From Elusimicrobiota bacterium (GTDB taxonomy: Bacteria > Elusimicrobiota > Elusimicrobia > UBA1565 > UBA9628), in the NCBI GenBank assembly GCA_033875325.1, contig JANRKA010000071.1, positions 73,371 through 137,370 on the forward strand: 64,000 bases of DNA. Direction: 5' to 3'. This document shows positions 15,245 to 40,691 of this stretch, piece after piece (position 1 is the stretch's first letter; the number at the start of each line of letters is the position of its first letter). The translations under genes were made by a program, and so were the position numbers. A model generated the notes under the pieces. The model searched no databases and had not been told where the DNA came from. It saw only the letters and a list, made by a program, of their open reading frames with translations.

Positions 15245-16150
15245 ATGAGAACTTTGCTTCTCGTCGCGACACTCGTGCTGGGCTCCCAGGCCGCCTGGGC
15301 GGCCGAGACGGCGGCTTTCCTCGATATCGGCGTGGGCGCGCGGGCGCTCGGCATGGGCGGCGCCTACACGGCGCTGGCTGATGACGCCAACGCGCTCTAC
15401 TGGAACCCGGCGGGGCTCTCGCGGCTTGAGAAACGCGAGTTCACGGCCAGCCACGCCGAGATGTTCGAGAGCACGCGCCATGACTTCCTGGCCTACGCGC
15501 ATCCCACGAGCCAGGGGACTTTCGCGGGCGGCCTGACATACTTGAGCCAGGGCAAGATCGACGGCCGCGACAGCCTGGGACGTCAGACGGCGGGCTACGA
15601 CGCCTCGGACGCGGCGCTCAGCCTCGCCTATGGGCGCAAGCTCGGCGTGGGGGATATCGGCGCGACGTTCAAATATCTGAGGAGCCATATCGGCTCGACC
15701 GAGGCTCAGGGCTTGGCCGCAGATGTGGGCGCCAAACGCGAGTTCGAAGGCGTCGGACCGGGCAAACTCGCCTTGGGTGCGGCGCTCAGAAACCTGGGCC
15801 CTGGGCTTAAGTTCCAAGACCAGCGCAACGACTTGCCGCTGCGGCTGGCTGTCGGGGCGGGTTATCGTTTCGCGGGTGGTCACGCGGCGGCGGCCGAGCT
15901 GGTCAACGGCCCTCGCGGCACTGGCACGGATGCCTCGTTCGGCGGAGAGTACCAGGCCATGAAGAATGTCTATCTGCGTGCGGGTTATACGACGCAGACG
16001 ACGATTACGGGCGGCTCCGGCTTCGATGCGGCACGGGGCCTCACTATGGGCCTTGGGTTCCGCGACGGCCGATGGGGTCTCGACTACGCCATCCTGCCCT
16101 CGGGCGAGTTGGGGCGCTCGCATCGGTTCAGTCTTAGCGCACGCTGGTAG
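15245..16150 (+). CDS. PorV/PorQ (UPF0164)-like outer-membrane beta-barrel protein
   Basis: ATG directly abuts the TAA of the giant CTD protein. Signal peptide, then GVGARALGMGGAYTALADDANALYWNPAGLSRL. Alternating beta-strand pattern with a C-terminal aromatic residue (...FSLSARW). Confidence 0.7.
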   Translation: MRTLLLVATLVLGSQAAWAAETAAFLDIGVGARALGMGGAYTALADDANALYWNPAGLSRLEKREFTASHAEMFESTRHDFLAYAHPTSQGTFAGGLTYLSQGKIDGRDSLGRQTAGYDASDAALSLAYGRKLGVGDIGATFKYLRSHIGSTEAQGLAADVGAKREFEGVGPGKLALGAALRNLGPGLKFQDQRNDLPLRLAVGAGYRFAGGHAAAAELVNGPRGTGTDASFGGEYQAMKNVYLRAGYTTQTTITGGSGFDAARGLTMGLGFRDGRWGLDYAILPSGELGRSHRFSLSARW

Positions 16151-17775: not shown

Positions 17776-18180
17776 CTATCGACGCAGAAGACGTCGCAGG
17801 CGCGCGAGTAGGATTTCGACTTCGAAAGGCTTGGTCAGGTAGTCGTCGGCGCCGGCGCTCAATGCCCTGACTTGGTCCTCGGTGCGCGTCCGGCCGCTGA
17901 CGATGAAGACTGGGATTGCCTTGGTGCGCGGATGTGCGCGTATCGCCTTCAGCAGATCCAGCCCGCTCAATCCGGGCAGATCCCAGTCGAGCAGCACGGC
18001 GTGGAAGTTCTCTTCGTTCAGCTTCCCGAGCGCTTCCTCCGCATTCCGGGTGAAGAGGCATGCGAACTCATCCTTGTGCCTCCGGAACAGGGACGTGTAG
18101 AACGTGCGCATGAGGTCGTCGTCTTCCACGATGATAAGGCGGTGGCGTAGTTCTGCGGCGGATTCGGCTTTATCGGTCAT
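17776..18180 (-). CDS. single-domain CheY-like response regulator
   Basis: IIVEDDDLMR...VLLDWDLPGLSGLDLLKAIR...PVFIVSG...GADDYLTKPF. 134 aa with no output domain. Confidence 0.85.
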   Translation of the reverse strand: MTDKAESAAELRHRLIIVEDDDLMRTFYTSLFRRHKDEFACLFTRNAEEALGKLNEENFHAVLLDWDLPGLSGLDLLKAIRAHPRTKAIPVFIVSGRTRTEDQVRALSAGADDYLTKPFEVEILLARLRRLLRR

Positions 18181-18284
18181 CTGGGCACCTCGCGCTCATA
18201 GGCATCAATTTATGTGCCGTTGGATGGGCCTTTAGGTCCTAGGGCAGGGCCTACTCGACGGGGGCCATATGCCCCTGAAAGCGC

Positions 18285-18415
18285 CTCGATCCGCGGCCTA
18301 CACTGAATGCAGACGCATTGATGACCTGTGTAGCCTGGGGAATCGGCCCCGGGGTATCCACGATCCCGCCGGAACGGGATGAGACCACGGGAAACGACTA
18401 CGATCGTTTCCCGTT
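18285..18415 (+). ncRNA. candidate structured leader RNA / riboswitch-like element, copy 1, ending in an intrinsic terminator
   Basis: Paralogous to 23267-23412 on the minus strand. The 38-nt core 18319-18356 is 36/38 identical to the reverse complement of 23339-23376. Flanking hairpins differ but stay paired. Terminator ACGGGAAACG-loop-CGTTTCCCGT plus T6, then conserved GTCGCC. Confidence 0.5.
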
Positions 18416-18987: not shown

Positions 18988-20598
18988 TCATGCGCCCCAG
19001 GGCGGTTCTTTGCCGACCACGCCGCTAAGGTGCTCATGACCGGAGAAGGAGCCTGCCGGACGACCCGTGGCCAGGTAAAGATTCTGGAATCCAGCGGCGT
19101 GTAAACGCGCGGACTCCTCCAACCCGCTCGCTCCTCCGCCGAGGTCGACGTCCAGGTAGACCGGAGTGCGCTTGTCGAGCGTCGCGCAGGCCGCATGGAA
19201 CGCGGCGAGGGTCTCGAACGCGACGAAGTCCTTGCCGTGCTCGTGGGCCGCGTTGCGCCAGGTGAGGCGCGTGAGGGGGTCATCGTCGATAAGCACCGCG
19301 TCGAGCCGCCGGATGCCCTGAGCCGTTGTCCCGACGGCGGGCAGCACCAGCGTCACGGCGGTTCCCACGCCGACTTTGGAGTCGATCTCCAGCCGTCCGC
19401 CCCAGACCTCCACGCTCTCGCGCGCATGATGGAGCCCGAGGCCGGAGCCGGCGGCCTTGCCGTGGCTGAAGCCGCGCTCCCCGGCCCGCGCGACGACTTC
19501 CGGCGGCATGCCTTTGCCGCCGTCTCGTACCGTCACGCGAACCTCGTCGGGATCCCGGGCCGCCTCGATGCGGACGGGCGCCGAGTCGGGCGCGCCCGAC
19601 TCGAGCGCGTTATTGATGAGGTTCGAGAGCACGCGCTTGAACTCAGCGGGATCGACGCGCGCGGAGAGTTCGCCCGGCGCCGCGCATTCGAAGAGGATGC
19701 GGCTCTCTCCCGAGGTTCCGGCGCCGAGGCTCTTCTCCGACACGATCTGCTCGATCATGTCGGAAAGAGCCGAGACGGGGGGCATGGCCGCGCGAGTCCG
19801 ATCGGGGCGGCGTCGCGCCAAAAGCCCATCGGCGATCTCCCGGATGCGTTCGAGGGCGTCGCGGAATTGGCGGCGTTTCGCGGCGGGCAGGGCGGCGGCG
19901 TCGCCCGCGGCGGCGTGTAGAGCGGCTAGCGGCGAGCGTATGTCGTGCGCCACCTGCTCGGCCAGCTCGGCGCGGACGCGCGTGTCGATCAACTGGCGCT
20001 CCTGCGCTTGGGCTCGATCGAGGCGCAGGCGGATGTCGCGCATATCGGCCATGATGCCGATCAGGTCGCGATGGGAGTCGATCTCGACTCCCGAGCCCTT
20101 GAGGAACTCGATGAGCGTGGTCGTGGTGCGCCGCTCAAGACGCCGCACGAAGGCGAGGGATAGGCCGGAGATCAGGACGTAGACGAGGAGAACGGCCATC
20201 ATCGGCGCCGTCGAGAAGCGGAAGGGACGGCACATCGTGATCCGCGCATCGCCCGCCGTGCTCGCCTTGCCGAGTGGATGCGCGAGGTCGGCGCAGTGGC
20301 CCGGCGCGGGTGGCCGGCCGAACTCGAAAGTCTCGTCGGCGATGCGTAGGCGTACGTAGAGGTCGGAAAACTCCCGGCCGACGCCTTCGACGAAGTCCCG
20401 GAACCTCCGGCCCTTGATGTCCTCGAAACGGGACTTGGTGAGCGTCAGGGCTTGGCTTTCGACGAGGCGTTGATTGTCCGCCGCCGCGAGACGATAGCTG
20501 CTATACCAGCTGCTGACCACCAGCGCCACGAAAAGGACGTTGAATACGAGCCAGACGCGCAACGGCGAGATGAGCGTCAGACGAGAGGATGGGGCCAC
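18988..20598 (-). CDS. hybrid sensor histidine kinase (2 TM + periplasmic loop, HisKA, HATPase_c, C-terminal receiver-like domain)
   Basis: ELAEQVAHDIRSPLAAL (H-box). NLINNALES, DGGKGMP, GSGLGLHHARE (N/G boxes). C-terminal VLIDDDPLTRL...VYLDVDLGG. I place the start at GTG 20596-20598, preceded by GGAGGG. The track ORF extends to 20955 but overlaps the YcaO gene. Confidence 0.85.
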   Translation of the reverse strand: MAPSSRLTLISPLRVWLVFNVLFVALVVSSWYSSYRLAAADNQRLVESQALTLTKSRFEDIKGRRFRDFVEGVGREFSDLYVRLRIADETFEFGRPPAPGHCADLAHPLGKASTAGDARITMCRPFRFSTAPMMAVLLVYVLISGLSLAFVRRLERRTTTTLIEFLKGSGVEIDSHRDLIGIMADMRDIRLRLDRAQAQERQLIDTRVRAELAEQVAHDIRSPLAALHAAAGDAAALPAAKRRQFRDALERIREIADGLLARRRPDRTRAAMPPVSALSDMIEQIVSEKSLGAGTSGESRILFECAAPGELSARVDPAEFKRVLSNLINNALESGAPDSAPVRIEAARDPDEVRVTVRDGGKGMPPEVVARAGERGFSHGKAAGSGLGLHHARESVEVWGGRLEIDSKVGVGTAVTLVLPAVGTTAQGIRRLDAVLIDDDPLTRLTWRNAAHEHGKDFVAFETLAAFHAACATLDKRTPVYLDVDLGGGASGLEESARLHAAGFQNLYLATGRPAGSFSGHEHLSGVVGKEPPWGA

Positions 20599-21533
20599 GG
20601 GTTCCCGCCCTCCTGCAGTGACTCGCTTCCCCAGGAGAGACGCGGCCAATGGGGATTCGTCGCCGCCGCGACGCAAGGAAAGCCTTCGATATCGACGAGG
20701 ACGCTGGTCTCGACATCGTCGTAGCCGCCAACTTCGATCGGCTCGGCGGTCCCGTGCCGACTTTCGAGGAATTTGAAAGCCGCGCGATTCTCCGGATTCA
20801 TGTAGAAGCTCCGGTGCGATTCGGGCCCGCCGCTTGCCGGAAGCGGGGCATAGGAGGAGGGTTTTCCATCGCGCACGACGGCGGAGCGGAGAAGCGAGCG
20901 CAACACTTTCGACTGGACATCCTTCAGCGGGACACCCGGGCGTTGATAGCAGCAATCAAAGAGCACGCCGTCCGCCGCTCCCCGGCCCAGCCCGCAGATC
21001 ACGTCGCCCAGCCTCACTTCCGACAAGCGAAACAGGTCGATTCCCCATCCGAGGTATTCCAAGGACGCCAGATGAGCCCGATTGAGAAGCCCGGCCGTTG
21101 GGACCTTCTCCCAACCCTTGCGCGAGTTCCAGGCCGTCAAGTAAACGGCTCGCTCGATGAGTTCCGCGCGCGCGGAGGCCTCCGCCTCCCCCGGGGTCGC
21201 GCCGCAGGCGAAGCCGTTGCTGCTGCGGGGGAGGCCGGTCGAGCCGATGGGTCGGTCACGCAGAAGGTCGAGCCAAAGGCGCTCCCAGGCTTCCGCGAAG
21301 GCCTGCGTGAGCGAATCCGTATACATCAGGCTGTCTCCGATGCCCTCGGCCTCGCGCCCCATTCCCGTGAGCCGGCAGCCGACGATCGAAATGGGAAGGA
21401 GCTTGGAGGGCACGGTGAAGATCGACCAGCGCAGGTCTTCGGCGCCGCCCGTGAGCGGAGAGCGTATTCGCGCGGAGCCCTTTCGAATGAAGGAGAGGTC
21501 GATGGACCAGCGGCTACTTCCAGCTGACTTCAT
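20577..21533 (-). CDS. short stand-alone YcaO-domain protein
   Basis: 318 aa. GIGDSLMYTDSLTQAFAEAWERLW, SSNGFACGATPGEAEASARAELIERAVYL and a proline-rich C-terminus GGNPWPHPLV, which are typical YcaO hallmarks. Overlaps the SBP gene by 20 nt and the kinase gene by about 22 nt. Confidence 0.7.
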   Translation of the reverse strand: MKSAGSSRWSIDLSFIRKGSARIRSPLTGGAEDLRWSIFTVPSKLLPISIVGCRLTGMGREAEGIGDSLMYTDSLTQAFAEAWERLWLDLLRDRPIGSTGLPRSSNGFACGATPGEAEASARAELIERAVYLTAWNSRKGWEKVPTAGLLNRAHLASLEYLGWGIDLFRLSEVRLGDVICGLGRGAADGVLFDCCYQRPGVPLKDVQSKVLRSLLRSAVVRDGKPSSYAPLPASGGPESHRSFYMNPENRAAFKFLESRHGTAEPIEVGGYDDVETSVLVDIEGFPCVAAATNPHWPRLSWGSESLQEGGNPWPHPLV

Positions 21534-22983
21534 AGAACCGCAGCCGCATGTCGAACGGGTTCAGCCGGGACAAGTCGACGCGCTTGCTCGCCGCGATCTG
21601 GTCCGATTCGATGAATAAGGGGACCGCATACGTTTCTTCCAGGACATGCTCATGAAGCGCGCGAATCTCCGTCTCCCGCTTTGCCTTCTCCTCCGCGGCG
21701 ATGATCCGATCGAAGAGCGGCTTTACCTCTTTCCTGAAGTAGCGCAGGTCTCCCTGGTCGGGTGAGAACATGAACTGCCAGCTCCCCATGGCGTCGTGCT
21801 GGTTGCCGGCGAACTGGGACATCTGCGCGTCGGCATCGTCCTTCGAGGCGTCTAAGTCCCTGGCGTACCCGATATCCAAAGCGACGCCTGCCTTGCCGAA
21901 GCCGGTCTTGAGGGCGTCGAGCACGGGCGCCGCGTCGGTGAACGCCGGGAGCAGATTGATCTTTACGCGCTGTCGGGCGAGGTCGGCGGTTTCGATCGCT
22001 TTCGGGGTGCAGTCGTTATCGAGGCGTCCGGAATATCCTTTAGGAATCAATTGGCACTCGCGCGCGAGGCTCGAATAGGCGAATCCATCCAGCGACCGCT
22101 GTACGATGAGAGCGAACTCACGCCGTGCCCTGGCCTCGCGCCAAAGGGCCTTTTTAGAGTTGAAGTAGAGATAGTAGATCCAGGTCGGATAGCCGCGCGA
22201 AACTTGCGGAGCACGGGAAAGCAGCTTCGGGATCGGGCTTCGGAAAACGGGAATGGGAAGCTTTAGGAGATCGACGTCGACGGAGTCGAAAAAGTCCCCT
22301 ATGGTATCCATCGTGAAGTTCACGAGCTCCACGCGCTCGGGATAGCCGCTCTCGCCGGGAAAGTGCGCATTGCGCCGCAGGACGAGCCGTTTGCCCGGCT
22401 CGTAGGAGTCGACCGAGAAAGCTCCGGAGGTCACCCGCCAGTCCTTGGCGCGGTTATCCGGATGGAGCAGAGCCGCATCGGCGAGGCTCAACTCGTGGAT
22501 CAAGCCGTCGTTGACGGGCACGGAGAACTCGAGGATAAGGCTGCGGTCCTCGACCGTCGCGCGGCGGAGCTTCTTCAGGTAGACGACATGCCGGCGCTTT
22601 TCGCGGCTGAGGGATTCGACATGGGCCGCGAGGTCCGCGGGCTTGATCGGAGTCCCGTCGCTCCAGGTCAAGGCCGGCCTCAAATGAAAGGCCCAGCGCG
22701 TCGGCGAAAGGCGCTCCCAGGACTCCGCGAGGCCGGGTCCATAGCCTGACGGCGACTGGCTCGAGTCCCGGACCAAGCCGATGGCGAGGTTCTCCAGGAG
22801 GTAATACTGGTAGGCGAACTCGGTGTTGTCCGGGTCCAGGAGCTTCTGGTCCTGCCGGAGCACCGCGAACGGGTAGCCGACGCGAAGCACGTTAGGGGCC
22901 TTCATACGGTATCGCAGGTAGGCGAGGCCCGCACCGACGCCCAACAGCAGCGCTGACGCCAGGACGGCCTTCCGGCGGGTCAT
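21514..22983 (-). CDS. extracytoplasmic solute-binding protein, family 5 (peptide/nickel type)
   Basis: 489 aa. N-terminal anchor/signal MTRRKAVLASALLLGVGAGLA. LAESWERLSPTRWAFHLRPALTWSDGTPIKPADL is typical of SBP_bac_5. Confidence 0.8.
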   Translation of the reverse strand: MTRRKAVLASALLLGVGAGLAYLRYRMKAPNVLRVGYPFAVLRQDQKLLDPDNTEFAYQYYLLENLAIGLVRDSSQSPSGYGPGLAESWERLSPTRWAFHLRPALTWSDGTPIKPADLAAHVESLSREKRRHVVYLKKLRRATVEDRSLILEFSVPVNDGLIHELSLADAALLHPDNRAKDWRVTSGAFSVDSYEPGKRLVLRRNAHFPGESGYPERVELVNFTMDTIGDFFDSVDVDLLKLPIPVFRSPIPKLLSRAPQVSRGYPTWIYYLYFNSKKALWREARARREFALIVQRSLDGFAYSSLARECQLIPKGYSGRLDNDCTPKAIETADLARQRVKINLLPAFTDAAPVLDALKTGFGKAGVALDIGYARDLDASKDDADAQMSQFAGNQHDAMGSWQFMFSPDQGDLRYFRKEVKPLFDRIIAAEEKAKRETEIRALHEHVLEETYAVPLFIESDQIAASKRVDLSRLNPFDMRLRFYEVSWK

Positions 22984-23004
22984 GAGCGAGGTTTCTCAAA
23001 GCGA

Positions 23005-23039
23005 GACGCCAAGCAACTCCTTGCCGGTTGCTTGGCGTC
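23005..23039 (-). terminator. perfect 13-bp stem-loop between the 48-codon ORF and the SBP gene (attenuator or RNA-stability hairpin)
   Basis: GACGCCAAGCAAC - 9 nt - GTTGCTTGGCGTC read directly. No clean U-run follows on the minus strand. Confidence 0.4.
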
Positions 23040-23062
23040 GTTCGCCAGGCAAGAACCCCGCG

Positions 23063-23209
23063 TCAGCGGGGAAAGCCTTTGCAGTTGGCGTCGTCGGCGA
23101 CGGGCTCGTTGGCGACGGGCTTCGTGTAGAGCTTCGCCGGCAGGGACAGCGCCAGGGAAATCACGCCGAGGAAGTAGCCGAGGGCGAGGACGGGGAGCTT
23201 CTTGTTCAT
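23063..23209 (-). CDS. 48-aa small peptide with hydrophobic signal-like N-terminus (candidate secreted or precursor peptide)
   Basis: MNKKLPVLALGYFLGVISLALSLPAKLYTKPVANEPVADDANCKGFPR. GGAGGT 8 nt upstream of the ATG. Internal start of track ORF 23063..23260. Confidence 0.5.
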   Translation of the reverse strand: MNKKLPVLALGYFLGVISLALSLPAKLYTKPVANEPVADDANCKGFPR

Positions 23210-23266
23210 GGTATCGAACCTCCGAGACACGAGTTTACGAAAATTGTCTCCTATCGACAATGTTCG

Positions 23267-23412
23267 GGCGACAAAAAAACCAAAGACCTGGAATGCCGTA
23301 TGGCATCGTCAGATCTCTGGTCTCATCCGATTGAGGTCGGATCGTGGATACCCCAGGGCCGATTCCCCGGGCTACAGAGCCGCCGCGCGGGCGGTGAGAA
23401 CAGTGTAGAGCC
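23267..23412 (-). ncRNA. candidate structured leader RNA / riboswitch-like element, copy 2, ending in an intrinsic terminator
   Basis: Minus-strand paralogue of 18285-18415, with the same order of elements: CTACAC, hairpin, core, 4-bp hairpin, AUGAGACC, terminator plus T7, GTCGCC. Starts right after the MFS stop codon, about 60 nt upstream of the 48-codon ORF. Confidence 0.5.
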
Positions 23413-23442
23413 GAGGCTGCGGTCCAGACAGGGTCCAAGGGC

Positions 23443-24624
23443 CTATCCGGCATTAGGTCTCTCCCGGCGGCCGAGCCCCCATGCCGCGCAGAGCAGCGCG
23501 CAAGCCGCGGCCGCACCGAAGAAGACGGGCGCGGGAGGCAGCCGCTTGAGCAGCAGGCCCACCCCGGCCGCCGCGAGAGGAGCGGCGAGCAAGGTGGCGG
23601 AGTTGAGCGTGCTGAAGACGCGGCCGGCTTGGGCGGCGGGGACCTCGCTTTGCAGGCGCGTCGCCACGGGGACCTGGATGAAGGGAAGCGCGGCCCCGAC
23701 GATCAGGACCGCGGCCGACGCTTGAAGCGGCGAGGTGCTGGAGCCGACCGCGACGAGTCCGCAGGCGACGGCTCCTAGGCCGGCCAGGATGGAGTCCTCC
23801 CAGCGTGCCGTTTCCATGAGCCGGCTTCCGGCTGCCAAGTTGCCGATGATCGCGCCAACGACCAGTACCGCCATGGCGCCGCCGAAGCCCTGCGGTCCGG
23901 AGCCGAGGGAGAGCAGGTGGGGGGCTAAGGCGACGTTGAGCGGCGCCAGGCAGAAGTTGACGGCGATACCCAACGCGGCGAGCGTGAGCACGAGCGGCAT
24001 GCGAAGAAGAGCGGAGAATGAATCGACGATGTCGGGCGAGCGGCCTTCCGCCGGTTGGTCGGGGGCTTGAGGAAGCGTCGCGAAGTGCGCCAGCGGCGTG
24101 GCCGCCAGGAAGACCGCGGCGAATATCGCGCAGGACGCGCCGAGTCCATGCCGCGCAAGAACCGCTCCCCCGAGCGCGGGCCCCGCGGCCGAGGCGGCCA
24201 GGAACGCAACGCCGCTCGAAGCGTTGGCCTCGTGCATTTTCTCTGGAGTGAACATGGAGGGGATGGTCTTAGAGACAGCTGGGCCGTGCGCGAGCGAGAA
24301 GAGCGCGCTCAGGAAGGCGAAGACGGCGGCGTGGGCCGCCACGGTCTGGGGCGTCAGGAGCGCGAGAGCGAGGAGGAGGACGGCGCGCGCCAGGCAGGCT
24401 GCGCTCAAGATGTTCCGCACGGGGTGGCGGTCGAGGGCTCGTCCGACCAGGGGGCCGAGCAGGCAGGCCGCGGCTGAGCCGACGAAGACTCCGCTCATCG
24501 CGGCGACGCCTCGCTGCTCCAAAGCCACCCAGGCCAGGAGCATCCGAACGCCCGCGTCCCCGGCGGTGGATAGGGCGTAGCCCGCGATCAGGCGGCGGAA
24601 CTCGCGACGATGGATCAGGCGCAT
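23443..24624 (-). CDS. MFS-family transporter (candidate exporter)
   Basis: 393 aa with about 12 hydrophobic segments. Typical MFS loop GPLVGRALDRHPVRN. Confidence 0.85.
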   Translation of the reverse strand: MRLIHRREFRRLIAGYALSTAGDAGVRMLLAWVALEQRGVAAMSGVFVGSAAACLLGPLVGRALDRHPVRNILSAACLARAVLLLALALLTPQTVAAHAAVFAFLSALFSLAHGPAVSKTIPSMFTPEKMHEANASSGVAFLAASAAGPALGGAVLARHGLGASCAIFAAVFLAATPLAHFATLPQAPDQPAEGRSPDIVDSFSALLRMPLVLTLAALGIAVNFCLAPLNVALAPHLLSLGSGPQGFGGAMAVLVVGAIIGNLAAGSRLMETARWEDSILAGLGAVACGLVAVGSSTSPLQASAAVLIVGAALPFIQVPVATRLQSEVPAAQAGRVFSTLNSATLLAAPLAAAGVGLLLKRLPPAPVFFGAAAACALLCAAWGLGRRERPNAG

Positions 24625-24645
24625 ATCCTAGCGGATGCGAAGGGC

Positions 24646-24677
24646 GGGGAGGCCGGCCCGCGCGGGCCGGCCTCCCC
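24646..24677 (-). terminator. GC-rich 15-bp stem hairpin directly after the 46-codon ORF
   Basis: GGGGAGGCCGGCCCG CG CGGGCCGGCCTCCCC read directly. Lies between the peptide stop (24690) and the MFS start (24624). No U-run. Confidence 0.45.
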
Positions 24678-24689
24678 GGGCGCGTCCGG

Positions 24690-24830
24690 CTAGATGCCGA
24701 CCGTGACCTGGATGGTGTTGCGGTACGGCTTGTCGCCGGCGTTGACCGAGGCGGGGCCGGCGGCGAGCTTGGCGAGCAGCTCCTGCGCGTCGATGCGCAG
24801 CTTGGTCTTGTTCTCGATGGTCTGGTTCAT
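24690..24830 (-). CDS. 46-aa candidate RiPP precursor peptide
   Basis: MNQTIENKTKLRIDAQELLAKLAAGPASVNAGDKPYRNTIQVTVGI. GGAG 7 nt upstream of the ATG. Lies 29 nt downstream of the radical SAM gene. It is the last 46 codons of the otherwise Arg/Pro-rich artefactual track ORF 24690..25313. Confidence 0.6.
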   Translation of the reverse strand: MNQTIENKTKLRIDAQELLAKLAAGPASVNAGDKPYRNTIQVTVGI

Positions 24831-24859
24831 GGGGTCTCCGTGCGTCTGGTTTTTACGGA

Positions 24860-26881
24860 CTACGCCGATGCGTAGAGCGGCGCCGATCGCGGCTCGGCGG
24901 CGGCCGTCCGGGCGCGGTAGAGCCCCGGGGCTTCTTCGATGAGATCGAGCTCGCCGTCGCCGATGCGGGTAAGTGCGTTCGCGATCCGGCCCAAGACGGC
25001 TTCGGGCAGGGCGTAGCCGCCGAAGCGGACGGCGAGGGCGAGGTAGAAGCCGGAGTCCTCGAGCAGCAGTCCCGTGCGCGTCATGGCCTGAGCGAGAAGG
25101 GCGATCTCCGCCTCGCGCGCAGCGTCGCCGGAGGCCTCCAAGCGGGCGGCGACTGAGCGCAGCCCCTGGATCTGGTCGCAGGACTCGTAGACCTCGCGAG
25201 CAGTGCCCTTCATGAGCCACACGCGGGGCTCGCCACGGCCGCGCTGGTCCCAGACGAGGAGCCCCTCGGCGGTCTCTATGGAGATCATCTCGCTGTCGCG
25301 GTAGTCTCCGCACCAGGCTCGGACGGCGTCCTGCAGTGGACGGACGTAGCCGCGCGGGTCGCGGCCGTCGCGGTAGTCGAACGAGAAATAATAGGCGAGC
25401 CGATGACGCGACTCGTCGTCGAGCCCCGGGTACAGGTGGGCGTAGGAGGAGCGCGCCTTGACGTTCGAGAAGCCGAGCGCGCGCGACTGGTCGAAGTTAG
25501 GGCTGAAGCGGTCCAAGCGCAACTGCGCCGTGCTGCCGGGTGGAGGAAGATGGGTGAGCAGCGGAACCCAGCGCGCCATCTTCTCGTACTCGCCCGGATC
25601 TTCCCCGGGGAAGCCCCAGAGGATGTTCCAGTAAGGAATGATGTTGAGCTCCTTGCACCATTTGATGAGCTGCACGTTCTGGAGCCCGGTCGTGCCCTTG
25701 CGCATGAGCTTGAGGACGGCGCTGCTGAGGCTCTCGATGCCGGGCTGGATGCGGGAGATTCCCGCTTCGCGCATGAGGCGGAGCTGCTCCTTGCGCAGGT
25801 TGGCCTTCACCTCGTAGAACAAGTCGGTCTTGCCGCCCCGGTCGCGCAGGGCGGGCAGGAAGCGCTGGAAGTAGCTCATGTCGAGGATGTTGTCCACGAC
25901 CGAGACCTCGATGCCGGGATAACGGGCGAGCAGGCCGTCGAGCTCGGAGAGCGCCCGCTCCTGCGACTTGGAGCGGAAGGCCATGTTGGAGCTGTTGAGT
26001 CCGCAGAAAGTGCAGTGGGACTTCTGCCCCCACCAGCAGCCGCGCGAGGTCTCGAAGAGCAGGCGCAGGTCTTGCCCGAGGTCGAGGCCGCTCTCGCGGA
26101 GTTGGCCGAAGTAGTCGTCGTAATCGAGATGCGGCAGGTCGTCGAGAGACTTGGGGGAGGGGGCCGTCAGCCGCGTGCCCGCCGCAGGCTCGCGTTGGCA
26201 GGTCAGTTGGGTGAACACTCCAGGCAAGCCCTCGGGCGCCTCTCCCGTGAGCAGTTTCTCGACCAAGGCAGGGAAGGCGACCTCGCCTTCGCCCGAGACC
26301 ACGGCGTCCACGAAGGGGAAGTTACGCAGAAGCTCAAGGCCCATCACGCCCTCGACGTTGGCGCCTCCGAAGACGATCCGAACGCCGGGGTGCGCGGTCT
26401 TGATGCGGCGCGCCAGCGCCAAGGAGGCGACGTTCTGCTGGAAGATGCTCGTGAAGCCGACCACGGGGTAGCGCCCCCAGTCGATCTCGACCGCGCAGCT
26501 CTCGATGAATTCCGTCGCCCGCTCACGAGCCTGGAGGGCCTGGGAGAAGAGCGCGTCCGTCTCGGCGGAGCCCTTGCCGCCGGCGCGGAGCACGCCTTTG
26601 AGGTAAGCGTCCGCGTCCGTGCGGCCGGGGTTGAGCGACTCGGCGAAGATCCACTCGCCGAGCATGTCGGCCGAGTCGGGCTTGCCGGAGGTGATGTCGT
26701 TGTAGAGCTCGACGCCGACGGCCTTGGCGAACGGCAGCGTCAGGTACAGGCACTGGGAGCGGATGCCCTTGTCCTTGAGGCAGGCTTGGAGCAGCGACAG
26801 GCCGATCGAGGGCATGTTCAAGGGACCGAACGGCAGGCTGACCATCAGGACCTTCGCGTCGGGGTTCGTTTTGATCATCAC
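24860..26881 (-). CDS. B12-binding radical SAM enzyme, RiPP-maturation C-methyltransferase-like
   Basis: 673 aa. N-terminal B12-binding-like VLMVSLPFGPLNMPSIGLSLLQACL. Cluster motif SRGCWWGQKSHCTFCGLN. Long C-terminal extension. From memory this matches the family NCBI names RiPP maturation radical SAM C-methyltransferase (TIGR03975). Confidence 0.85.
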   Translation of the reverse strand: MMIKTNPDAKVLMVSLPFGPLNMPSIGLSLLQACLKDKGIRSQCLYLTLPFAKAVGVELYNDITSGKPDSADMLGEWIFAESLNPGRTDADAYLKGVLRAGGKGSAETDALFSQALQARERATEFIESCAVEIDWGRYPVVGFTSIFQQNVASLALARRIKTAHPGVRIVFGGANVEGVMGLELLRNFPFVDAVVSGEGEVAFPALVEKLLTGEAPEGLPGVFTQLTCQREPAAGTRLTAPSPKSLDDLPHLDYDDYFGQLRESGLDLGQDLRLLFETSRGCWWGQKSHCTFCGLNSSNMAFRSKSQERALSELDGLLARYPGIEVSVVDNILDMSYFQRFLPALRDRGGKTDLFYEVKANLRKEQLRLMREAGISRIQPGIESLSSAVLKLMRKGTTGLQNVQLIKWCKELNIIPYWNILWGFPGEDPGEYEKMARWVPLLTHLPPPGSTAQLRLDRFSPNFDQSRALGFSNVKARSSYAHLYPGLDDESRHRLAYYFSFDYRDGRDPRGYVRPLQDAVRAWCGDYRDSEMISIETAEGLLVWDQRGRGEPRVWLMKGTAREVYESCDQIQGLRSVAARLEASGDAAREAEIALLAQAMTRTGLLLEDSGFYLALAVRFGGYALPEAVLGRIANALTRIGDGELDLIEEAPGLYRARTAAAEPRSAPLYASA

Positions 26882-26946
26882 CCCCCGGTGATCAATTTAT
26901 ATGCTGTAGCACGGGGAAAGGGCGGACGGCGCCATGGAGGTGTCCT

Positions 26947-27288
26947 ATGTTCTGCGAGATCAAGAAGAACGAAACGAAAGTCGCGAACGACTGGTTCCGG
27001 CGCTGCGAGAAGGAGCGCATGCCCTACGTGGTCGTGACGCACCGGAAGAAGTATTCCGCGGTAGACTGGGACTACATCTCGTTGCCCAAGGCGGCGGACG
27101 CCAAGCTCGATGCCGCCTCACCCGCGCTGCTCGACCAGCTGCAGGAAGTGTTCCAGCGGCACGCGAGCCGGAAGTCGAAGGTTAATTTCTCGGCGAAGGT
27201 CGGGGGATTCGACAATCTGCTGCCCGATGAAGCGCGAGCCGCAGCACGGGAAGTATTCCAGGTCCTACAGGCGACCCAGGCTTCGTGA
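26947..27288 (+). CDS. hypothetical protein, first gene of the sigma-54 module
   Basis: 113 aa. GGAGGTG Shine-Dalgarno. Its stop overlaps the GTG start of the activator gene (GTGA). Confidence 0.5.
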   Translation: MFCEIKKNETKVANDWFRRCEKERMPYVVVTHRKKYSAVDWDYISLPKAADAKLDAASPALLDQLQEVFQRHASRKSKVNFSAKVGGFDNLLPDEARAAAREVFQVLQATQAS

Positions 27289-28646
27289 CTAGAAAACTCA
27301 AAATCCTCATCGTCGAGGACGATCCGCTTTCCCGCAAGCTCGTGGAAGGGGAGCTGCGCGGCCACGCCGTGGACTTCGCCGTCGACCTGGCCTCCGGACG
27401 CAAGAAGATCGCAGCGGGCGGGCACGACATCTGCTTTATCGACCTTAAGCTCGGCGACAAGGACGCGGCGTCCGGCCTCGAACTCGTCCCCTTGGCGGCT
27501 AAGTCCGGGGCCTACTGCGTGGTCATGTCGGCGCATGACTCCGACGCCGTCGTGCAGAAAGCCTACGAGCTCGGCTGCGACGACTTCTACGCCAAGGGCA
27601 ACGAAGAGGAGAACGTGAGCTCGGTCGTGGCGCGCTTCCTGCGCAAGCGGCCCGAGGAAGGCGAAGACCGGCTGTTCAAGGACCTCTTCGTCACCGAGGA
27701 CGCGGCTACCAAGGTCGCAGTCGGCGAAGCCCTCAAGTACGCCGCCTCGGACGTGCCGATCATGATCCTCGGCCCTTCCGGGACGGGCAAGACGAGTTTA
27801 GCCGAGGTCATTCATGGGCGCTCCGGGCGCAGGGGGGCGTTCGTCGCCATGAACTGCGCGGACTACGCGACCGAGGACATGCTCGAGATCGAGCTCTTCG
27901 GCTACCGCAAGGGCGCCTTCACCGGCGCGGGAGATGGGCGCAAGGGCAAGCTGCTCCTGGCGGACGGGGGAACGCTGTTCCTGGACGAGATCGGCTCTAT
28001 GAGCCCGGCCATGCAGAGCCGCCTTCTCAAGGCCATCGAGGAGCGCTCGTTTTATCCCGTCGGTTCCGACAGCTTGGTGAAGTCGCGTTTCCGCGTCATC
28101 AGCGCCACTTTGGAGAACCCGCAATCTTTGGTCAAACGTGGGCGCATGCGCTTCGACCTGCTCCAGCGCGTCCAGGGCTTGACGATCGAGCTCAAGCCAC
28201 TGGCGCGCCGCAAGGACGACGTCCTCCCGCTCATCGCCTTCTTCACCCGGAAGGGCCGCCGGCTCGCCTTCGCGGATGACGCCAAAGAGCTTCTGCTGCG
28301 CCACGAGTGGCCGGGAAACGTGCGCGAGCTCAAGAAGTTCGTCGAGCTCGCGGTCGCAGGCGAACCTGGCCGGGTCACGGCCGACGCCGCGCGGCGGGTC
28401 CTGGCGCTGACCCGAGCCGCAGAGTCGTCCGACGGCTTCCTCACCGAGACTCAGTATCGCGAGGCGCTATCGGAGGGGCTTTCCGCCGCCGTCGCCCGCT
28501 TCGAGGGCGAGGCCATCCGGCGCAGCTTGGCTGAGAACGCCGGACGCAAGGACAAGGCCGCTCAGGATCTGCGCATCGCGGCGAAAGTGATCGACGCACA
28601 CCTCAAGCGCTCGGATGGGCCGGGAGGCCGCACCGATGGCGACTGA
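27285..28646 (+). CDS. sigma-54-dependent response regulator (NtrC family: receiver + AAA+ + C-terminal HTH)
   Basis: KILIVEDDPLSR...ICFIDLKLGD. Walker A GPSGTGKTSLAE. GAFTGA loop in YRKGAFTGAG. TLFLDEIG. WPGNVRELKKFVE. Confidence 0.9.
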   Translation: MTRKLKILIVEDDPLSRKLVEGELRGHAVDFAVDLASGRKKIAAGGHDICFIDLKLGDKDAASGLELVPLAAKSGAYCVVMSAHDSDAVVQKAYELGCDDFYAKGNEEENVSSVVARFLRKRPEEGEDRLFKDLFVTEDAATKVAVGEALKYAASDVPIMILGPSGTGKTSLAEVIHGRSGRRGAFVAMNCADYATEDMLEIELFGYRKGAFTGAGDGRKGKLLLADGGTLFLDEIGSMSPAMQSRLLKAIEERSFYPVGSDSLVKSRFRVISATLENPQSLVKRGRMRFDLLQRVQGLTIELKPLARRKDDVLPLIAFFTRKGRRLAFADDAKELLLRHEWPGNVRELKKFVELAVAGEPGRVTADAARRVLALTRAAESSDGFLTETQYREALSEGLSAAVARFEGEAIRRSLAENAGRKDKAAQDLRIAAKVIDAHLKRSDGPGGRTDGD

Positions 28647-28845
28647 CCCCAAGACCGGATTGGCCGACCTGCGTCACGAGGTGATCGCCAAGTGCGGCAA
28701 CCTCAAGACGGCCGTGGGCCAGCTCACCGGCGAGGCCACGGCGTCACAGATCGAGCTCGCGGAGCTGATGAAAGAGCAGGCGCGCTACCTTTCAGAGAGG
28801 ATCTCCGCCTACGCTGCGGCCCTGAACGCCAGTAAACGCCGATGA
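28636..28845 (+). CDS. small helical hypothetical protein
   Basis: MATDPKTGLADLRHEVIAKCGNL... (69 aa), in the frame of track ORF 28615..28845. ATGA overlap with the downstream sigma-54-like gene. Confidence 0.4.
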   Translation: MATDPKTGLADLRHEVIAKCGNLKTAVGQLTGEATASQIELAELMKEQARYLSERISAYAAALNASKRR

Positions 28846-29897
28846 GGTCGCGGACCGGGACCTCCACGCGCTCAAGCGTGCAGGTCGGCATCAAGCTGGC
28901 GCGCCTGCTGGAACTGCCGGAGGAGGAGTTCGCGGGGCGCGTGCGCGAGCTGGAAGCCGACGTCTTATTCCGACGGCTCGTTCACGCCAAGGTGATCTCG
29001 GTGCAGCCGTATTCCGGAGCCTCCTTCATGGCCCGTCGCTTCGGCGGTTGGGGGCTGAGCACGGCGACGGACGGCGTGCCGGAAGCACTCCAGGGTCAGG
29101 GCGACCTGGCGCGGCTCCTTCAGCGCGTCGGGGAGAAGCGGTTCGAGGAATACTTCCTCCGCGACGAGGGCTATTCGGACGAGGAGCGCGCGCGCCTGTG
29201 CGGGGTGGCGAAGGAAGAGGCCGGGCGCCTGCGCGAGCTGGTCAACAGCCTCTATATTCAGGCGGAGTTCGACGGCTCCGCGTCCACGCCCGCGCCGCCC
29301 AAGACCTACAGCGCCGTCGCCGGAGTCACGGTGGAGGGGGGCAAGGCCGTTCTCGGCTTCTTCAACCGCCAGATTTGGAAGGGACGCTACCAAGTGGACG
29401 AGGAGCGCAGTCGCCGGATGCTGGACTCCCTGCCCGCATCAGAGGCGCGCCGACTAGCCGGTTTCCTGCGTGACCTCGGCCTCCTTGAGCGGCGCAAGAG
29501 CACCCTCTACCGGGTGCTGGAGGCGCTCATCGAGGAGCAGGCCGAGTTCTTCCAGAGCGGCGACCCGGGCCGCCGCCGCGCCATAACCCAACGCGAGTTG
29601 GCCGACAAGCTCGACGTGACGCCGAGCGTGCTCAACCGCCTCATCTCCAACAAGTCGGTGCAGCTTCCCTGGGGCCTCGACGCACCGATGAAGACCTTCC
29701 TACCCAGCCGGAAGTCCTTGATCCGCGACCGTCTCCACGAACTTATCCGCGAGTTCCCCGACGCAACCGATGAGATACTGGGCCGCAAGATCGACCGCTT
29801 GTATGGGGTCGCGCTCTCCGCGCGTTCTATCGCGCAGTATCGCGCCGAGCTCGGCCTCGGCAACATGCGCAAGCGTCGGAAATCGACGGCTATCTAA
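28842..29897 (+). CDS. compact sigma-54 (RpoN)-like factor, 351 aa
   Basis: C-terminal half is RpoN-like: ...RRKSTLYRVLEALIEEQAEFFQSGDPGRRRAITQRELADKLDVTPSVLNRLISNKSVQLPWG...MKTFLP. RpoN-box-like LSARSIAQYRAELGL. The N-terminus lacks the long Gln/Leu-rich region I. Confidence 0.7.
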   Translation: MRSRTGTSTRSSVQVGIKLARLLELPEEEFAGRVRELEADVLFRRLVHAKVISVQPYSGASFMARRFGGWGLSTATDGVPEALQGQGDLARLLQRVGEKRFEEYFLRDEGYSDEERARLCGVAKEEAGRLRELVNSLYIQAEFDGSASTPAPPKTYSAVAGVTVEGGKAVLGFFNRQIWKGRYQVDEERSRRMLDSLPASEARRLAGFLRDLGLLERRKSTLYRVLEALIEEQAEFFQSGDPGRRRAITQRELADKLDVTPSVLNRLISNKSVQLPWGLDAPMKTFLPSRKSLIRDRLHELIREFPDATDEILGRKIDRLYGVALSARSIAQYRAELGLGNMRKRRKSTAI

Positions 29898-30600: not shown

Positions 30601-30892
30601 TCCGAATGATTGTAATCGGGATTCCGCCGCTTCGCCAGTCGCGCGAACCGCATGAAAATTGATCCTCGCTCAGCGTCAGGGTGACGCGCTTCGGGACTCG
30701 TCGTCCCGATAAGAGCGAGGGTGAACTCCCCGGCTCCCGAAGAGGGAGACGCCGCCCGCCCCCTGGGGTAACCCAGGCTTGGCGGGTCGGCCACGAGCGC
30801 GGTTCTGCCAGGGCGCATCCGGCGAAGCCGGACGCCTCAACCGACCGCTGAGCCCACCGAGAACCGGACGCCAGTGAAGGGATGGTGCCTTC

Positions 30893-32323: not shown

Positions 32324-33136
32324 TTGGCGATGAAGACGACGGCAGACATTCGGCGCGGAGAAATCCAGCTCACGGCGCGGGACCTCAAGATGCTCGCGGC
32401 GCTCGAGAAGTGGATCGTGCTCGGCATCGGCCAGATGGTGGGGCTGGGCCTGGAGCCGACGCTGGAGAAAGCCGAACTCATCGAGCGCTTCTTCAACAAG
32501 ATGGAGCGCGAGGACTACAAGCTCGGCGTCTTCAACCGCGTCCACGCGCTGGAGGCCCAGGGCTATATCCAAGGTCATTCCTTCCTGCGCCAGCCGAAGG
32601 CGTACACGCTTACCGAGCGGGGCTACAACGCGTTGCGAGACGAGCCGGTCGAGCAGCGCCCCGAGATCCGCGACTTCGTGAGCGAGGCCCTGATCCGCCA
32701 CGAGCTGAAGGTCTCGGCCGTGGGCCTGGTCCTCACGGAAGTCCTCGGACTTCCCGGCGCCCGCCAGCACCCGAAGGCCGTGTGGACGCACGCGGGCGGT
32801 CGCCGTCGCCTCGTGGTCGAGGGGGCCTCCGATCTCTGGATCGAGGGTGCCGAGCCCAAGGCGATCGAGGTCGAGCTGACCCAGAAGTCCAAGGGGCGGT
32901 ATGAAGAGATTTTCGAGACCTACCGCCGCCGCCTGACGCGCGGCGGCGTGGTCCTCTACCTCACGGGCTGGCCGGGCGGGGCGGCCGTCATCCTTAAGAA
33001 CGCCCGCGCGCTGCGCGCGCCCTTCGTCTATGCCTGCGGCCTGGAGGAGTTCCGCCTGGCGGCGGGCCGCTGCGTCTTCCAAGGCGCGGTCGAGAGCCGC
33101 GCCATCTCTCTCGGCACGGCGGAGGCCGCGCGATGA
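32324..33136 (+). CDS. replication-relaxation-like protein (winged-helix N-terminus), candidate non-canonical relaxase
   Basis: 270 aa. LTARDLKMLAALEKWIVLGIGQM and ...IRHELKVSAVGLVL... resemble the Replic_Relax family as I remember it. Sits between the oriT-like region and the coupling protein gene. Confidence 0.4.
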   Translation: MAMKTTADIRRGEIQLTARDLKMLAALEKWIVLGIGQMVGLGLEPTLEKAELIERFFNKMEREDYKLGVFNRVHALEAQGYIQGHSFLRQPKAYTLTERGYNALRDEPVEQRPEIRDFVSEALIRHELKVSAVGLVLTEVLGLPGARQHPKAVWTHAGGRRRLVVEGASDLWIEGAEPKAIEVELTQKSKGRYEEIFETYRRRLTRGGVVLYLTGWPGGAAVILKNARALRAPFVYACGLEEFRLAAGRCVFQGAVESRAISLGTAEAAR

Positions 33137-39277: not shown

Positions 39278-39582
39278 GCAAGAAGATGACGGGCGCGGCC
39301 CTGGCGGCCGCGGGGATGACGATGACGGCGACGCAGGCCTTCGCGCAGTACGGCGGCAACGAGGGCCAGCTCGGCAACTTCCTCAACGGGTCGGCCAACT
39401 GGCTGATCACGATCCTGGGGCCGGGCGTGTTCCTGCTGGGCCTCATCTGGGTCGGCATCAGCCTCGCGGCGGGCGACCAGGACGCGATGCGCAAGGGCGG
39501 CTACGTTGTGGGTGGCGGGGCGCTGATCTTCCTCGCGCCCTCGCTCATGGCGCTGCTCAAGCGCCTGGCCGGGGGGTTCTGA
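39274..39582 (+). CDS. TrbC/VirB2-like T4SS pilin
   Basis: GTGA overlap with the upstream gene. Signal AALAAAGMTMTATQAFA, then two hydrophobic helices (WLITILGPGVFLLGLIWVGISLAAG, GGGALIFLAPSLMALL). About 100 aa. Confidence 0.6.
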   Translation: MSKKMTGAALAAAGMTMTATQAFAQYGGNEGQLGNFLNGSANWLITILGPGVFLLGLIWVGISLAAGDQDAMRKGGYVVGGGALIFLAPSLMALLKRLAGGF

Positions 39583-39629
39583 GGAGCGGGGCGGAGTACC
39601 AGAGCGCGGGGGATATCCTGGCGCCCTGG

Positions 39630-40449: not shown

Positions 40450-40691
40450 CCACCGCAGCGCCGAATAAGAGGCCGATTCGTTTCGCGAACGGCAGTAATT
40501 GCGGCGCGTCCAGGGACGCACAGAACGCGGACGTGAGGACGATCACTGCTGGACAGGCAGTCATCCTCTCGAAGTCTCGGAACGACGTGATGCTGACGAT
40601 CAACACGGGGTATCTCCTCCATAGCGCCCTACCTATAGGGAGCTTTTCCACCATTTTTCAGGAATTCTCGCGGTCGCGGAGGAAGGCTTGA
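40446..40691 (+). CDS. small hypothetical ORF coupled on both sides (between the VirB3-like and VirB4-like genes)
   Basis: ATGA overlap with the upstream stop and TTGA overlap with the downstream start. Lower G+C and atypical composition, so it may instead be non-coding. Confidence 0.3.
   Translation: MTTAAPNKRPIRFANGSNCGASRDAQNADVRTITAGQAVILSKSRNDVMLTINTGYLLHSALPIGSFSTIFQEFSRSRRKA

Follow-up and report, generated by a model that had tools for sequence, protein, structure and literature searches.

Signalling peptides read by a family-5, OppA-type substrate-binding protein (SBP) include the Phr peptides acting via OppA (Rap-Phr, ICEBs1 RapI-PhrI) and those bound by PrgZ, the enterococcal pheromone-binding protein of pCF10. 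These systems employ Sec-exported pre-peptides of ca. 40–50 amino acids with a C-terminal active part, in association with conjugation or type IV secretion genes, and the unmodified peptides are imported to cytoplasmic receptors. LuxP-LuxQ and TorT-TorS represent a second arrangement, an orphan periplasmic SBP beside a kinase with a periplasmic loop and a receiver-like (REC-like) domain, with no adjacent peptide gene or maturase known. YcaO enzymes such as McbD, BalhD and LynD/TruD combine the YcaO fold, ATP/Mg motifs and a C-terminal PxPxP sequence with a Cys-containing ribosomal peptide encoded alongside, the PxPxP tail being a mark of azoline-forming YcaOs. Small thioamide-forming YcaOs of methanogens (MJ1094 and the M. 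kandleri enzyme; PDB 6pe3, 6cib) modify a Gly of McrA. The locus described here, located at positions 18988–26881 of a 64,000-nucleotide stretch of DNA from an Elusimicrobiota bacterium (the whole stretch being referred to as the window), brings elements of these systems together. It consists of two adjacent modules, not of one cluster: module A, built around a radical S-adenosylmethionine (rSAM) enzyme, and module B, a cassette of a small open reading frame (ORF), an SBP, a small YcaO and a sensor kinase, headed by a riboswitch of the 2'-deoxyguanosine (2'-dG)-II class.

The seven genes, which a preliminary description had placed correctly and all on the minus strand, are arranged as follows:

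24860–26881, minus strand: rSAM enzyme of module A, 673 amino acids (TIGR03975, PF04055, PF02310)
24690–24830, minus strand: microA of module A, 46-amino acid candidate precursor, MNQTIENKTKLRIDAQELLAKLAAGPASVNAGDKPYRNTIQVTVGI (conserved position, GGAG ribosome-binding site)
23443–24624, minus strand: major facilitator superfamily (MFS) transporter of module A, 393 amino acids, probable exporter of the rSAM product (PF07690)
23063–23209, minus strand: microB of module B, 48-amino acid secreted pre-peptide, MNKKLPVLALGYFLGVISLALSLPAKLYTKPVANEPVADDANCKGFPR (positional homologues, GGAGG ribosome-binding site)
21514–22983, minus strand: family-5 SBP of module B, 489 amino acids (PF00496)
20577–21533, minus strand: mini-YcaO of module B, 318 amino acids (structure model and fold comparison, weak Pfam match)
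18988–20598, minus strand: sensor histidine kinase of module B, 536 amino acids (PF02518)

The YcaO gene shares 20 nucleotides with the SBP gene and 22 with the kinase gene. The kinase start most likely lies at 20598, as given by gene calls on identical public contigs, yielding the 536-residue protein and not the 655-residue ORF. Short gaps or overlaps, as initially reported, do separate all genes but one pair; the sole long intergenic gap, of 233 nucleotides, separates the MFS gene from the 48-codon ORF and contains the riboswitch and its terminator, which had been overlooked.

The window proteins were mapped onto 14 genome loci with a YcaO relative, 4 from Elusimicrobiota and 10 from Bdellovibrionota, and a metagenome scan contributed 9 further loci; P0020, P0033 and P0043 are known as gene tables without DNA, so small ORFs there fall outside the sequence counts. 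The SBP gene lies immediately 5' of the YcaO gene, overlapping it or separated by a few tens of bases, in 14/14 genome loci. Module B as a whole (48-residue ORF, SBP, YcaO and kinase) is kept across ca. 20 loci in both phyla, and the members known from gene tables show the order small ORF of 49–75 residues, SBP, YcaO and kinase, without an rSAM. The rSAM, its 46-residue ORF and the MFS gene, on the other hand, are present in only two of the 14 loci (L001 and L002) and are missing from the YcaO loci L003, L004–L014, L019, L030–L032, P0020, P0033 and P0043. Furthermore, L035 has a 47%-identical rSAM behind which come a 63-residue ORF of its own and genes for an M16 peptidase, a MarR protein and an MFS transporter; YcaO, SBP and kinase are all missing there. 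Absence of the trio from most YcaO loci, together with this independent unit, identifies the rSAM, the 46-residue ORF and the MFS transporter as a self-contained unit of the type that produces peptides made on ribosomes and modified after translation (RiPPs).

This organisation bears directly on the view taken in the preliminary description, namely a single RiPP cluster in which rSAM and YcaO tailor the same or cooperating products, the MFS transporter exports them and the SBP and kinase sense them. All genes do lie on a single strand, the trio adjoins the SBP/kinase cassette in the window and in L001, L002, L033 and L034, and a motif shared within the surrounding island occurs in the rSAM promoter region, so that both units may answer one circuit. 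However, the trio is absent even from the closely related L003, an independent rSAM module exists elsewhere, and rSAM and YcaO are each accompanied by a neighbouring small ORF of their own. In addition, the riboswitch terminator stands between the units, a ca. 530-residue ORF separates the trio from the small ORF in L001 and L002, and L034 keeps the rSAM while its YcaO has been replaced. One integrated cluster is thus highly improbable, and the idea of a single characteristic gene combination is not sustained. The same applies to the MFS transporter as exporter for the whole locus, as it travels with the rSAM module and the peptide of the YcaO module bears a Sec signal. What does hold is the expectation that both small ORFs are conserved beside their enzymes in other genomes, and the suggestion of a peptide made, exported and sensed by one locus fits the unit of 48-residue ORF, SBP, YcaO and kinase well.

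The central enzyme of module B is a small and divergent YcaO. Its Pfam match is weak and partial (PF02624, 28 bits against a cut-off of 25.7, profile positions 113–180), it has no match in NCBIfam, and a sequence profile search of the PDB with the YcaO alignment gave marginal matches (E = 0.03–0.08), for which reason a fold comparison was needed. The AlphaFold2 (AF2) model has a predicted local distance difference test score (pLDDT) of 89 and a predicted template-modelling score (pTM) of 0.88, and the 20 best Foldseek matches in the PDB are all YcaO enzymes (E = 2e-8 to 5e-4, template-modelling score 0.47–0.61). These are headed by the M. jannaschii and M. kandleri thioamide YcaOs, followed by McbD, an ATP-dependent YcaO peptidase (7u58) and LynD/TruD. 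The original assignment of the 318-residue protein, which had relied on the segments SNGFACG...AELIERA and NPWPHPLV, is therefore confirmed at the level of the fold despite the weak Pfam match.

Conserved residues support the same assignment. The sequences EAWER, SNGFAxG...ELIER and the terminal NPWPHPL(A/V) are invariant in an alignment of 18 members, with E81, E84, R85, G107, A109, E124, E127 and R128 conserved throughout together with N311, W313, P314, H315 and P316 of the C-terminal PxPxP tail. The Pfam match spans exactly the ATP/Mg2+ motif region (ExxER, SxGxAxG...ExxER). With fold, ATP motifs and terminal PxPxP all intact, the protein is predicted from its sequence and model to be an active enzyme, template-modelling scores of 0.52–0.59 to solved YcaO structures pointing the same way. 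Close relatives are few, forming 43 clusters in an index of 5.8 billion proteins; a profile search of 1.84 billion representatives recovered 250 at E<=1e-10, of which 123 reached E<=1e-30, and almost all of them are ca. 300 amino acids long.

In comparison with McbD, BalhD and LynD/TruD, the enzyme shares the fold, the ATP/Mg motifs, the PxPxP tail and the Cys-containing ribosomal peptide alongside, but is only 318 residues long and invariably accompanied by an SBP and a kinase. An E1/ThiF-like or RiPP recognition element (RRE) partner or a flavin mononucleotide (FMN) dehydrogenase was not found within 10 kb in any of the loci examined, nor was TfuA in the examined neighbourhoods. The peptide offers a single Asn-Cys site behind a Sec-signal leader, unlike the Cys/Ser/Thr-rich cores of linear azol(in)e-containing peptide (LAP) and cyanobactin systems. 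Without an E1/RRE partner or dehydrogenase, and with a single Cys and a Sec-signal leader, module B is not a classical azole RiPP system. The methanogen YcaOs are the best structural match, are similarly small, and share sequence similarity around SxGxAxG...ExxER, but identity to them is only 13–16% and they lack the small ORF/SBP/kinase context. Since these best structural matches are TfuA-independent, the mini-YcaO may also carry out thioamide chemistry.

The putative substrate is encoded by the small ORF. The 48-codon ORF noted previously beside the SBP gene is present, with a GGAGG ribosome-binding site, and is conserved in position: microB homologues precede the SBP gene in every locus where the region is readable, L007 and L010 apart. 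All positional small ORFs start with a hydrophobic, Sec-type signal-like segment, and several contain canonical AXA cleavage sites (L006 TASA|F, L004 AFA|S). Their C-terminal parts are otherwise unrelated between loci, with one exception: Asn-Cys occurs near the C-terminus (2–17 residues from the end) in 15/15 distinct loci, whereas among 1785 control ORFs of comparable length from the same DNA only 3.3% have Asn-Cys within the last 25 residues. As the YcaO itself has no signal sequence, any modification of the peptide must precede Sec export. A second Cys follows 1–7 residues past the Asn-Cys (N-C-x1-7-C) in Bdellovibrionota L004, L005, L006, L013, L019 and L024 and also in L032, whereas most Elusimicrobiota peptides lack it. 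This Cys could represent a second modification site or form a disulfide.

Downstream of the small ORF, in the interval before the SBP gene, a further structured element is found:

22990–23061, minus strand: strong hairpin, candidate attenuator or mRNA stabiliser (-46.1 kcal/mol, z = -5.5)

Hairpins of different sequence occupy the same position in L001, L003, L030 (with a U-run) and L031. A small ORF followed by a stable hairpin is typical for abundantly expressed structural genes of peptide operons.

The SBP carries the PF00496 domain expected of an SBP_bac_5-type binding protein, together with weak NCBIfam matches to OppA and NikA. Every member possesses an N-terminal signal anchor or a lipobox, such as LLAGC in L031, and no module B operon examined contains an ATP-binding cassette (ABC) permease or ATPase. 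The possibility that the SBP helps the YcaO to recognise its substrate in the cytoplasm was also considered and was rejected in view of the anchor or lipobox found in every member. In the kinase, HATPase_c (PF02518) is confirmed and the H-box is present with a weak HisKA match; two transmembrane segments flank a periplasmic loop of ca. 100 amino acids. Of the sensor kinase with periplasmic loop and receiver originally proposed, the catalytic domain and loop thus stand, but the C-terminal domain is only REC-like. In L019 this domain is encoded by a free-standing gene. The kinase gene adjoins the YcaO gene in almost all loci and overlaps its end in most; among Bdellovibrionota it does so in L004, L006, L008, L009 and L024 and lies just upstream in L007 and L012. 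Anchored and without a permease, the SBP is thus an orphan periplasmic binding protein beside a kinase with a loop. The locus shows the composition of an SBP-coupled kinase system, with an extracytoplasmic SBP lacking an ABC partner and a kinase with a periplasmic domain, as well as that of a peptide-pheromone circuit of the agr, com or nisin type, with small ORF, YcaO and kinase in one operon and REC and REC-AAA+ genes adjacent.

The parallels with the systems introduced above can now be drawn. A Sec pre-peptide of comparable length with its distinctive part at the C-terminus, a putative OppA-type receptor and association with type IV secretion genes are shared with Phr/OppA and PrgZ, whereas a YcaO maturase, the lack of a permease, a membrane kinase as the likely transducer and diderm hosts set module B apart. 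The orphan SBP beside a looped kinase with a receiver-like domain is shared with LuxP-LuxQ and TorT-TorS, but the SBP family and type of ligand differ, and a peptide gene and maturase are present here.

Cassette replacement in two sister loci, L033 and L034, provides independent information on which components belong together. The flanks are conserved (rSAM 74%, MFS 58%, activator 61% and sigma-54-like protein 62% identity), as are the kinase catalytic core and C-terminal domain (40–45%). In the stretch from the MFS gene to the kinase core, on the other hand, SBP, maturase and peptide have been replaced, and the first ca. 200 residues of the kinase, its sensor part, are unalignable to the window kinase. 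L033 encodes a peptide ending in …GSICDKKG, an SBP of 25% identity and another kind of YcaO. In L034 (11265–16584) the same island slot holds, in place of the YcaO and Asn-Cys peptide, a different SBP, an alpha/beta-hydrolase, a 42-residue signal-peptide ORF that contains no Cys, and a methyltransferase of ICMT/PEMT-like type, followed by the kinase. Peptide, SBP, maturase and sensor domain change together, as expected of a signal and its receptor, and this joint replacement argues against a YcaO substrate outside the cassette. Through such swapping, nature has in effect set up an experiment in which the evolution of specificity in peptide signalling can be followed.

An external ligand has to be weighed against this. 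The SBP and kinase might sense an oligopeptide, a metal or a nucleoside-derived compound, the YcaO modifying a protein of the pathway as in the case of McrA, or serving some other role, and the small ORF being an unmodified accessory that is secreted or sits in the membrane. Environmental peptides and nickel are common ligands of family-5 SBPs, the thioamide YcaOs closest in solved structure act on a protein, and induction by a metabolite riboswitch is typical of nutrient systems. Such a reading is nevertheless unlikely, as it leaves unexplained the Asn-Cys in 15/15 otherwise unrelated small ORFs, the exchange of peptide, SBP, maturase and sensor domain as one set, and the attenuator hairpin behind the small ORF. 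Alternatively, the 48-residue peptide could be a YcaO-modified, bacteriocin-like antimicrobial, with autoinduction through the kinase as in nisin or subtilin and an SBP serving immunity or capture. The indications that the peptide is modified and secreted serve this reading equally, and hypervariable tails and cassette swapping are also known from bacteriocin/immunity systems. An immunity ABC transporter, protease or dedicated exporter is missing, however, the surroundings of the cassette are regulatory (an island with activator, sigma-54-like factor and REC proteins) and not those of a toxin/immunity locus, and in two phyla translational coupling links the SBP gene to those of YcaO and kinase. 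A bacteriocin is therefore regarded as distinctly unlikely, and a secreted peptide that is sensed by its own operon is preferred. No dedicated exporter was found in module B, the Sec signal sequence standing in its place.

The 2'-dG-II riboswitch class is said to go back to Weinberg in 2017. Regulation had been passed over entirely in the preliminary description, in spite of two copies of this riboswitch and a sigma-54-like circuit. The elements in the window are as follows:

23312–23382, minus strand: 2'-dG-II aptamer copy 1, upstream of module B (RF03165, 77.1 bits, gathering score 60, E = 3.8e-18)
23270–23324, minus strand: expression platform of copy 1, a terminator stem with U-run (minimum free energy -63.9 kcal/mol, z = -4.8)
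18323–18393, plus strand: 2'-dG-II aptamer copy 2 (RF03165, 76.6 bits)
18387–18414: terminator of copy 2 with U-run, overlapping the 3' strand of P1
18479–18955, plus strand: riboswitch-controlled protein of 158 amino acids, downstream of aptamer copy 2

The RF03165 match is full-length, above the gathering score and wins over other models of the purine clan. J2/3 UAUCCACG is invariant and the 5-nucleotide J3/1 (G-A-G/A/C-A-C) aligns gaplessly to the model in 7 copies, which fits the class-specific insertion: a J3/1 longer by two nucleotides is described as unique to 2'-dG-II riboswitches (PMC6847200). The 5' arm of the copy 1 terminator includes J3/1 and the 3' strand of P1. Because the terminator arm contains the P1 3' strand, ligand binding should prevent termination, and both copies should thus act as ON switches, as judged from the modelled folds. 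A simple terminator scan detected the terminator of copy 2 only, that of copy 1 being missed because its stem is interrupted.

Eleven further RF03165 copies are present in L001–L003 and L030–L034:

L001: 8152–8222 and 13593–13663
L002: 8139–8209 and 14875–14945
L003: 8133–8202
L030: 8071–8143
L031: 2188–2258
L032: 4283–4354
L033: 20203–20273
L034: 11166–11236 and 18586–18657

In L001, L002 and L003 the small ORF has the aptamer upstream of it; the aptamer is found upstream of the SBP gene in L034, and in L032 upstream of an activator heading the whole operon. The gene most consistently found behind it is that of the 158-residue protein, whose homologues are preceded by an aptamer in L001, L002, L030, L033 and L034, and also in L031, where the homologue itself precedes the small ORF. 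This family comprises 46 homologue clusters, all from Elusimicrobia, with a core of EYxYCTMYGVNIVDGNIVSCxNIQRS...GRRFRRL; it has no Pfam or NCBIfam match and its AF2 model is unusable (pLDDT 45). In the Elusimicrobiota metagenome-assembled genomes, every riboswitch copy has a terminator behind it in competition with P1.

The class has been known from 12 metagenomic reads without host assignment (PMC5473149) and in 2025 was still given as deriving from environmental samples (PMC12342879). The window copies resemble published members in their full-length match, their J2/3 and J3/1 and a transcription-terminator platform, but differ in that host phylum and regulated genes are visible. This is the first genomic context for a 2'-dG-II riboswitch that we can find within the accessible literature. 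A rare class thereby gains a host phylum and a regulon, so that the targets of these switches can be put to a direct test. Signalling and type IV secretion genes make up this regulon and not those of nucleotide metabolism, which had not been expected.

Taken together, these features are best explained by an integrated model of a 2'-dG-gated system built on a modified, secreted peptide and comprising both units, the chances for and against which we consider evenly balanced. A 2'-dG-type ligand would bind the riboswitch, stabilise P1 and block the terminator, allowing transcription into the cassette. The pre-peptide would be made in excess, helped by the hairpin 3' of its gene. In the cytoplasm, the ATP-dependent YcaO would activate the backbone amide at the invariant Asn-Cys, most likely to form a thiazoline, with ATP-dependent cleavage or thioamidation as alternative outcomes. 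The Sec machinery would then export the peptide, to be released by signal peptidase, and the membrane-tethered SBP would bind the mature peptide and signal to the periplasmic loop of the kinase. The kinase is proposed to phosphorylate a REC-AAA+ activator and a single-domain REC protein encoded nearby. These receivers, with a sigma-54-like factor, would drive CAGCAT-N5-TTGATCAC promoters at the rSAM operon and at genes beside those for type IV secretion. Much firmer than this model are the division into two modules, the conservation of the cassette, the Asn-Cys motif and the riboswitch. Gene identities, SBP topology, terminator geometry and cassette swapping are likewise direct observations, whereas the substrate and chemistry of the YcaO, binding of the peptide to the SBP, the targets of the kinase and the function of the promoter motif are inferred.

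Several observations weigh against the model. The nearest solved structures are thioamide-forming YcaOs and not cyclodehydratases, the azoline dehydrogenase, E1/ThiF-like and TfuA partners are missing, and the Elusimicrobiota peptide offers a single Cys. We know of no precedent for a Sec signal serving as the leader for a cytoplasmic YcaO, an arrangement that needs modification before export. No small ORF was found in L007, that of L010 is ambiguous, and the L033 peptide, encoded beside a different YcaO, has Ile-Cys instead of Asn-Cys. The REC-like domain of the kinase is a sub-threshold Pfam match (E = 0.13). Riboswitches were not found in the Bdellovibrionota loci, which have the cassette nonetheless, so that 2'-dG gating is lineage-specific. 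The CAGCAT-N5-TTGATCAC motif resembles a -24/-12 promoter in spacing, but its bases depart from the canonical GG/GC rule. Lastly, rSAM and cassette are syntenic in five close relatives, and a functional connection between the modules could yet be the reason.

A broader proposal is put forward tentatively, as possible rather than probable: module B would encode a diderm peptide pheromone of a previously unknown kind, exported by Sec, tailored at Asn-Cys by a stand-alone mini-YcaO and read by an OppA-type SBP and kinase. In Elusimicrobiota it would be armed only in the presence of 2'-dG as a signal of DNA breakdown, and would then control, via a private sigma-54-like factor, a DNA-transfer island with type IV secretion and single-stranded DNA-binding (SSB) genes as well as the methylated-peptide module. 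Bdellovibrionota would possess a simpler form, and the cassette would diversify in the manner of pherotypes. The accessible literature contains no description of a cassette of mini-ORF, SBP, YcaO of ca. 300 residues and kinase; the rSAM unit belongs to a known, annotated family. A compact cassette spanning two phyla is hereby defined which, if the integrated model holds, would extend YcaO chemistry to Sec-exported signalling peptides in diderms.

Module A is, judging by its annotation, a conventional RiPP module and an ordinary member of a very large family. The rSAM carries SRGCWWGQKSHCTFCGLN and the radical SAM Cys motif CWWGQKSHCTFC, and matches TIGR03975 ('RiPP maturation radical SAM C-methyltransferase') over model positions 1–606 with 638.7 bits, far above the cut-off of 281.85. 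Together with its Radical_SAM (PF04055) and B12-binding (PF02310) domains, this bears out its earlier assignment as a B12-binding enzyme of the RiPP C-methyltransferase type. More than 7989 homologues at E<1e-50 occur in many phyla. The 46-codon ORF does lie exactly 29 nucleotides downstream, as had been noted, with its own GGAG ribosome-binding site. An ORF of 46–47 codons takes the same place beyond the rSAM in L001, L002, L033 and L034, making five loci with the window, the copies of L001 and L002 being one codon longer. These microA peptides have a conserved, leader-like middle part, EELLAKLAAGPASVNAGDK, and a variable C-terminal core of the form x-V-x-V/I-G-x; the 63-residue ORF downstream of the distant L035 rSAM ends in GEVEVGVSVKVKF. 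The MFS transporter, confirmed by PF07690, accompanies the rSAM in L001, L002, L033, L034 and L035. Most likely, the cobalamin-dependent rSAM C-methylates the Val/Ile/Thr-rich C-terminal core of the 46-residue peptide, and the MFS pump would export the methylated product.

The closest described analogues of module A are C-methylated peptides made by B12-rSAM enzymes with MFS export, such as the clavusporins (PMC10849626). The clavusporin mpc cluster combines an MFS transporter, a peptidase, a Val/Ile/Thr/Pro-rich precursor, a B12-rSAM and a DUF5825 protein (PMC10849626). Module A shares with it, and with polytheonamide PoyB/C, a B12-rSAM, a short candidate precursor with a beta-branched hydrophobic core and a probable MFS exporter, but unlike mpc it has neither a DUF5825 partner nor a peptidase in the window.

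The cassette sits in a conserved Elusimicrobiota island, of which the following genes are found in the window:

27285–28646, plus strand: REC-AAA+ sigma-54 activator (PF00072, PF00158)
28615–28845, plus strand: ORF of 76 amino acids between the activator and sigma-54-like genes
28842–29897, plus strand: protein of 351 amino acids with the sigma-54 DNA-binding domain only (PF04552)
17776–18180, minus strand: single-domain response regulator, 134 amino acids (PF00072)
33133–34881, plus strand: VirD4/TraG-type coupling protein
39267–40091, plus strand: SSB-domain protein
40688–43126, plus strand: VirB4/TraC-type ATPase

The trio of activator, 76-residue ORF and sigma-54-like protein adjoins the cassette also in P0020, L030, L031, L032, L033 and L034 and may constitute a private sigma-54 paralogue system. 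TraG-like genes lie near the cassette in P0020, L019, L030, L031 and L033.

A scan for canonical sigma-54 promoters (TGGCAC-N5-TTGCW, <=2 mismatches) gave 15 matches in the window against 19.7 expected, hence no enrichment, and a sigma-70 promoter scan found nothing. The CAGCAT-N5-TTGATCAC family, on the other hand, has 3 window matches against 0.1 expected:

26891–26904, minus strand: promoter-like motif GCATATAAATTGAT of this family, just 5' of the rSAM gene
18204–18217, minus strand: CAGCAT-N5-TTGATCAC motif, 5' of the REC gene
30650–30663, plus strand: CAGCAT-N5-TTGATCAC motif

Elsewhere the motif occurs in L001 (2311, 13756, 15656), L002 (2277, 15038, 16911), L003 (2264) and L031 (2070, 9838), and it recurs upstream of rSAM and REC genes across these four loci. 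As a candidate promoter for the sigma-54-like factor of the island it is a lead and not a result; its position upstream of the rSAM gene would put module A downstream of the signalling circuit.

Finally, the island is flanked by the following genes:

2495–7915, 8810–15244, 34020–37403 and 15245–16150, plus strand: giant fn3/DUF11/FlgD_ig surface proteins and a PorV-like outer-membrane protein

Similar giant proteins flank the island in other Elusimicrobiota loci.

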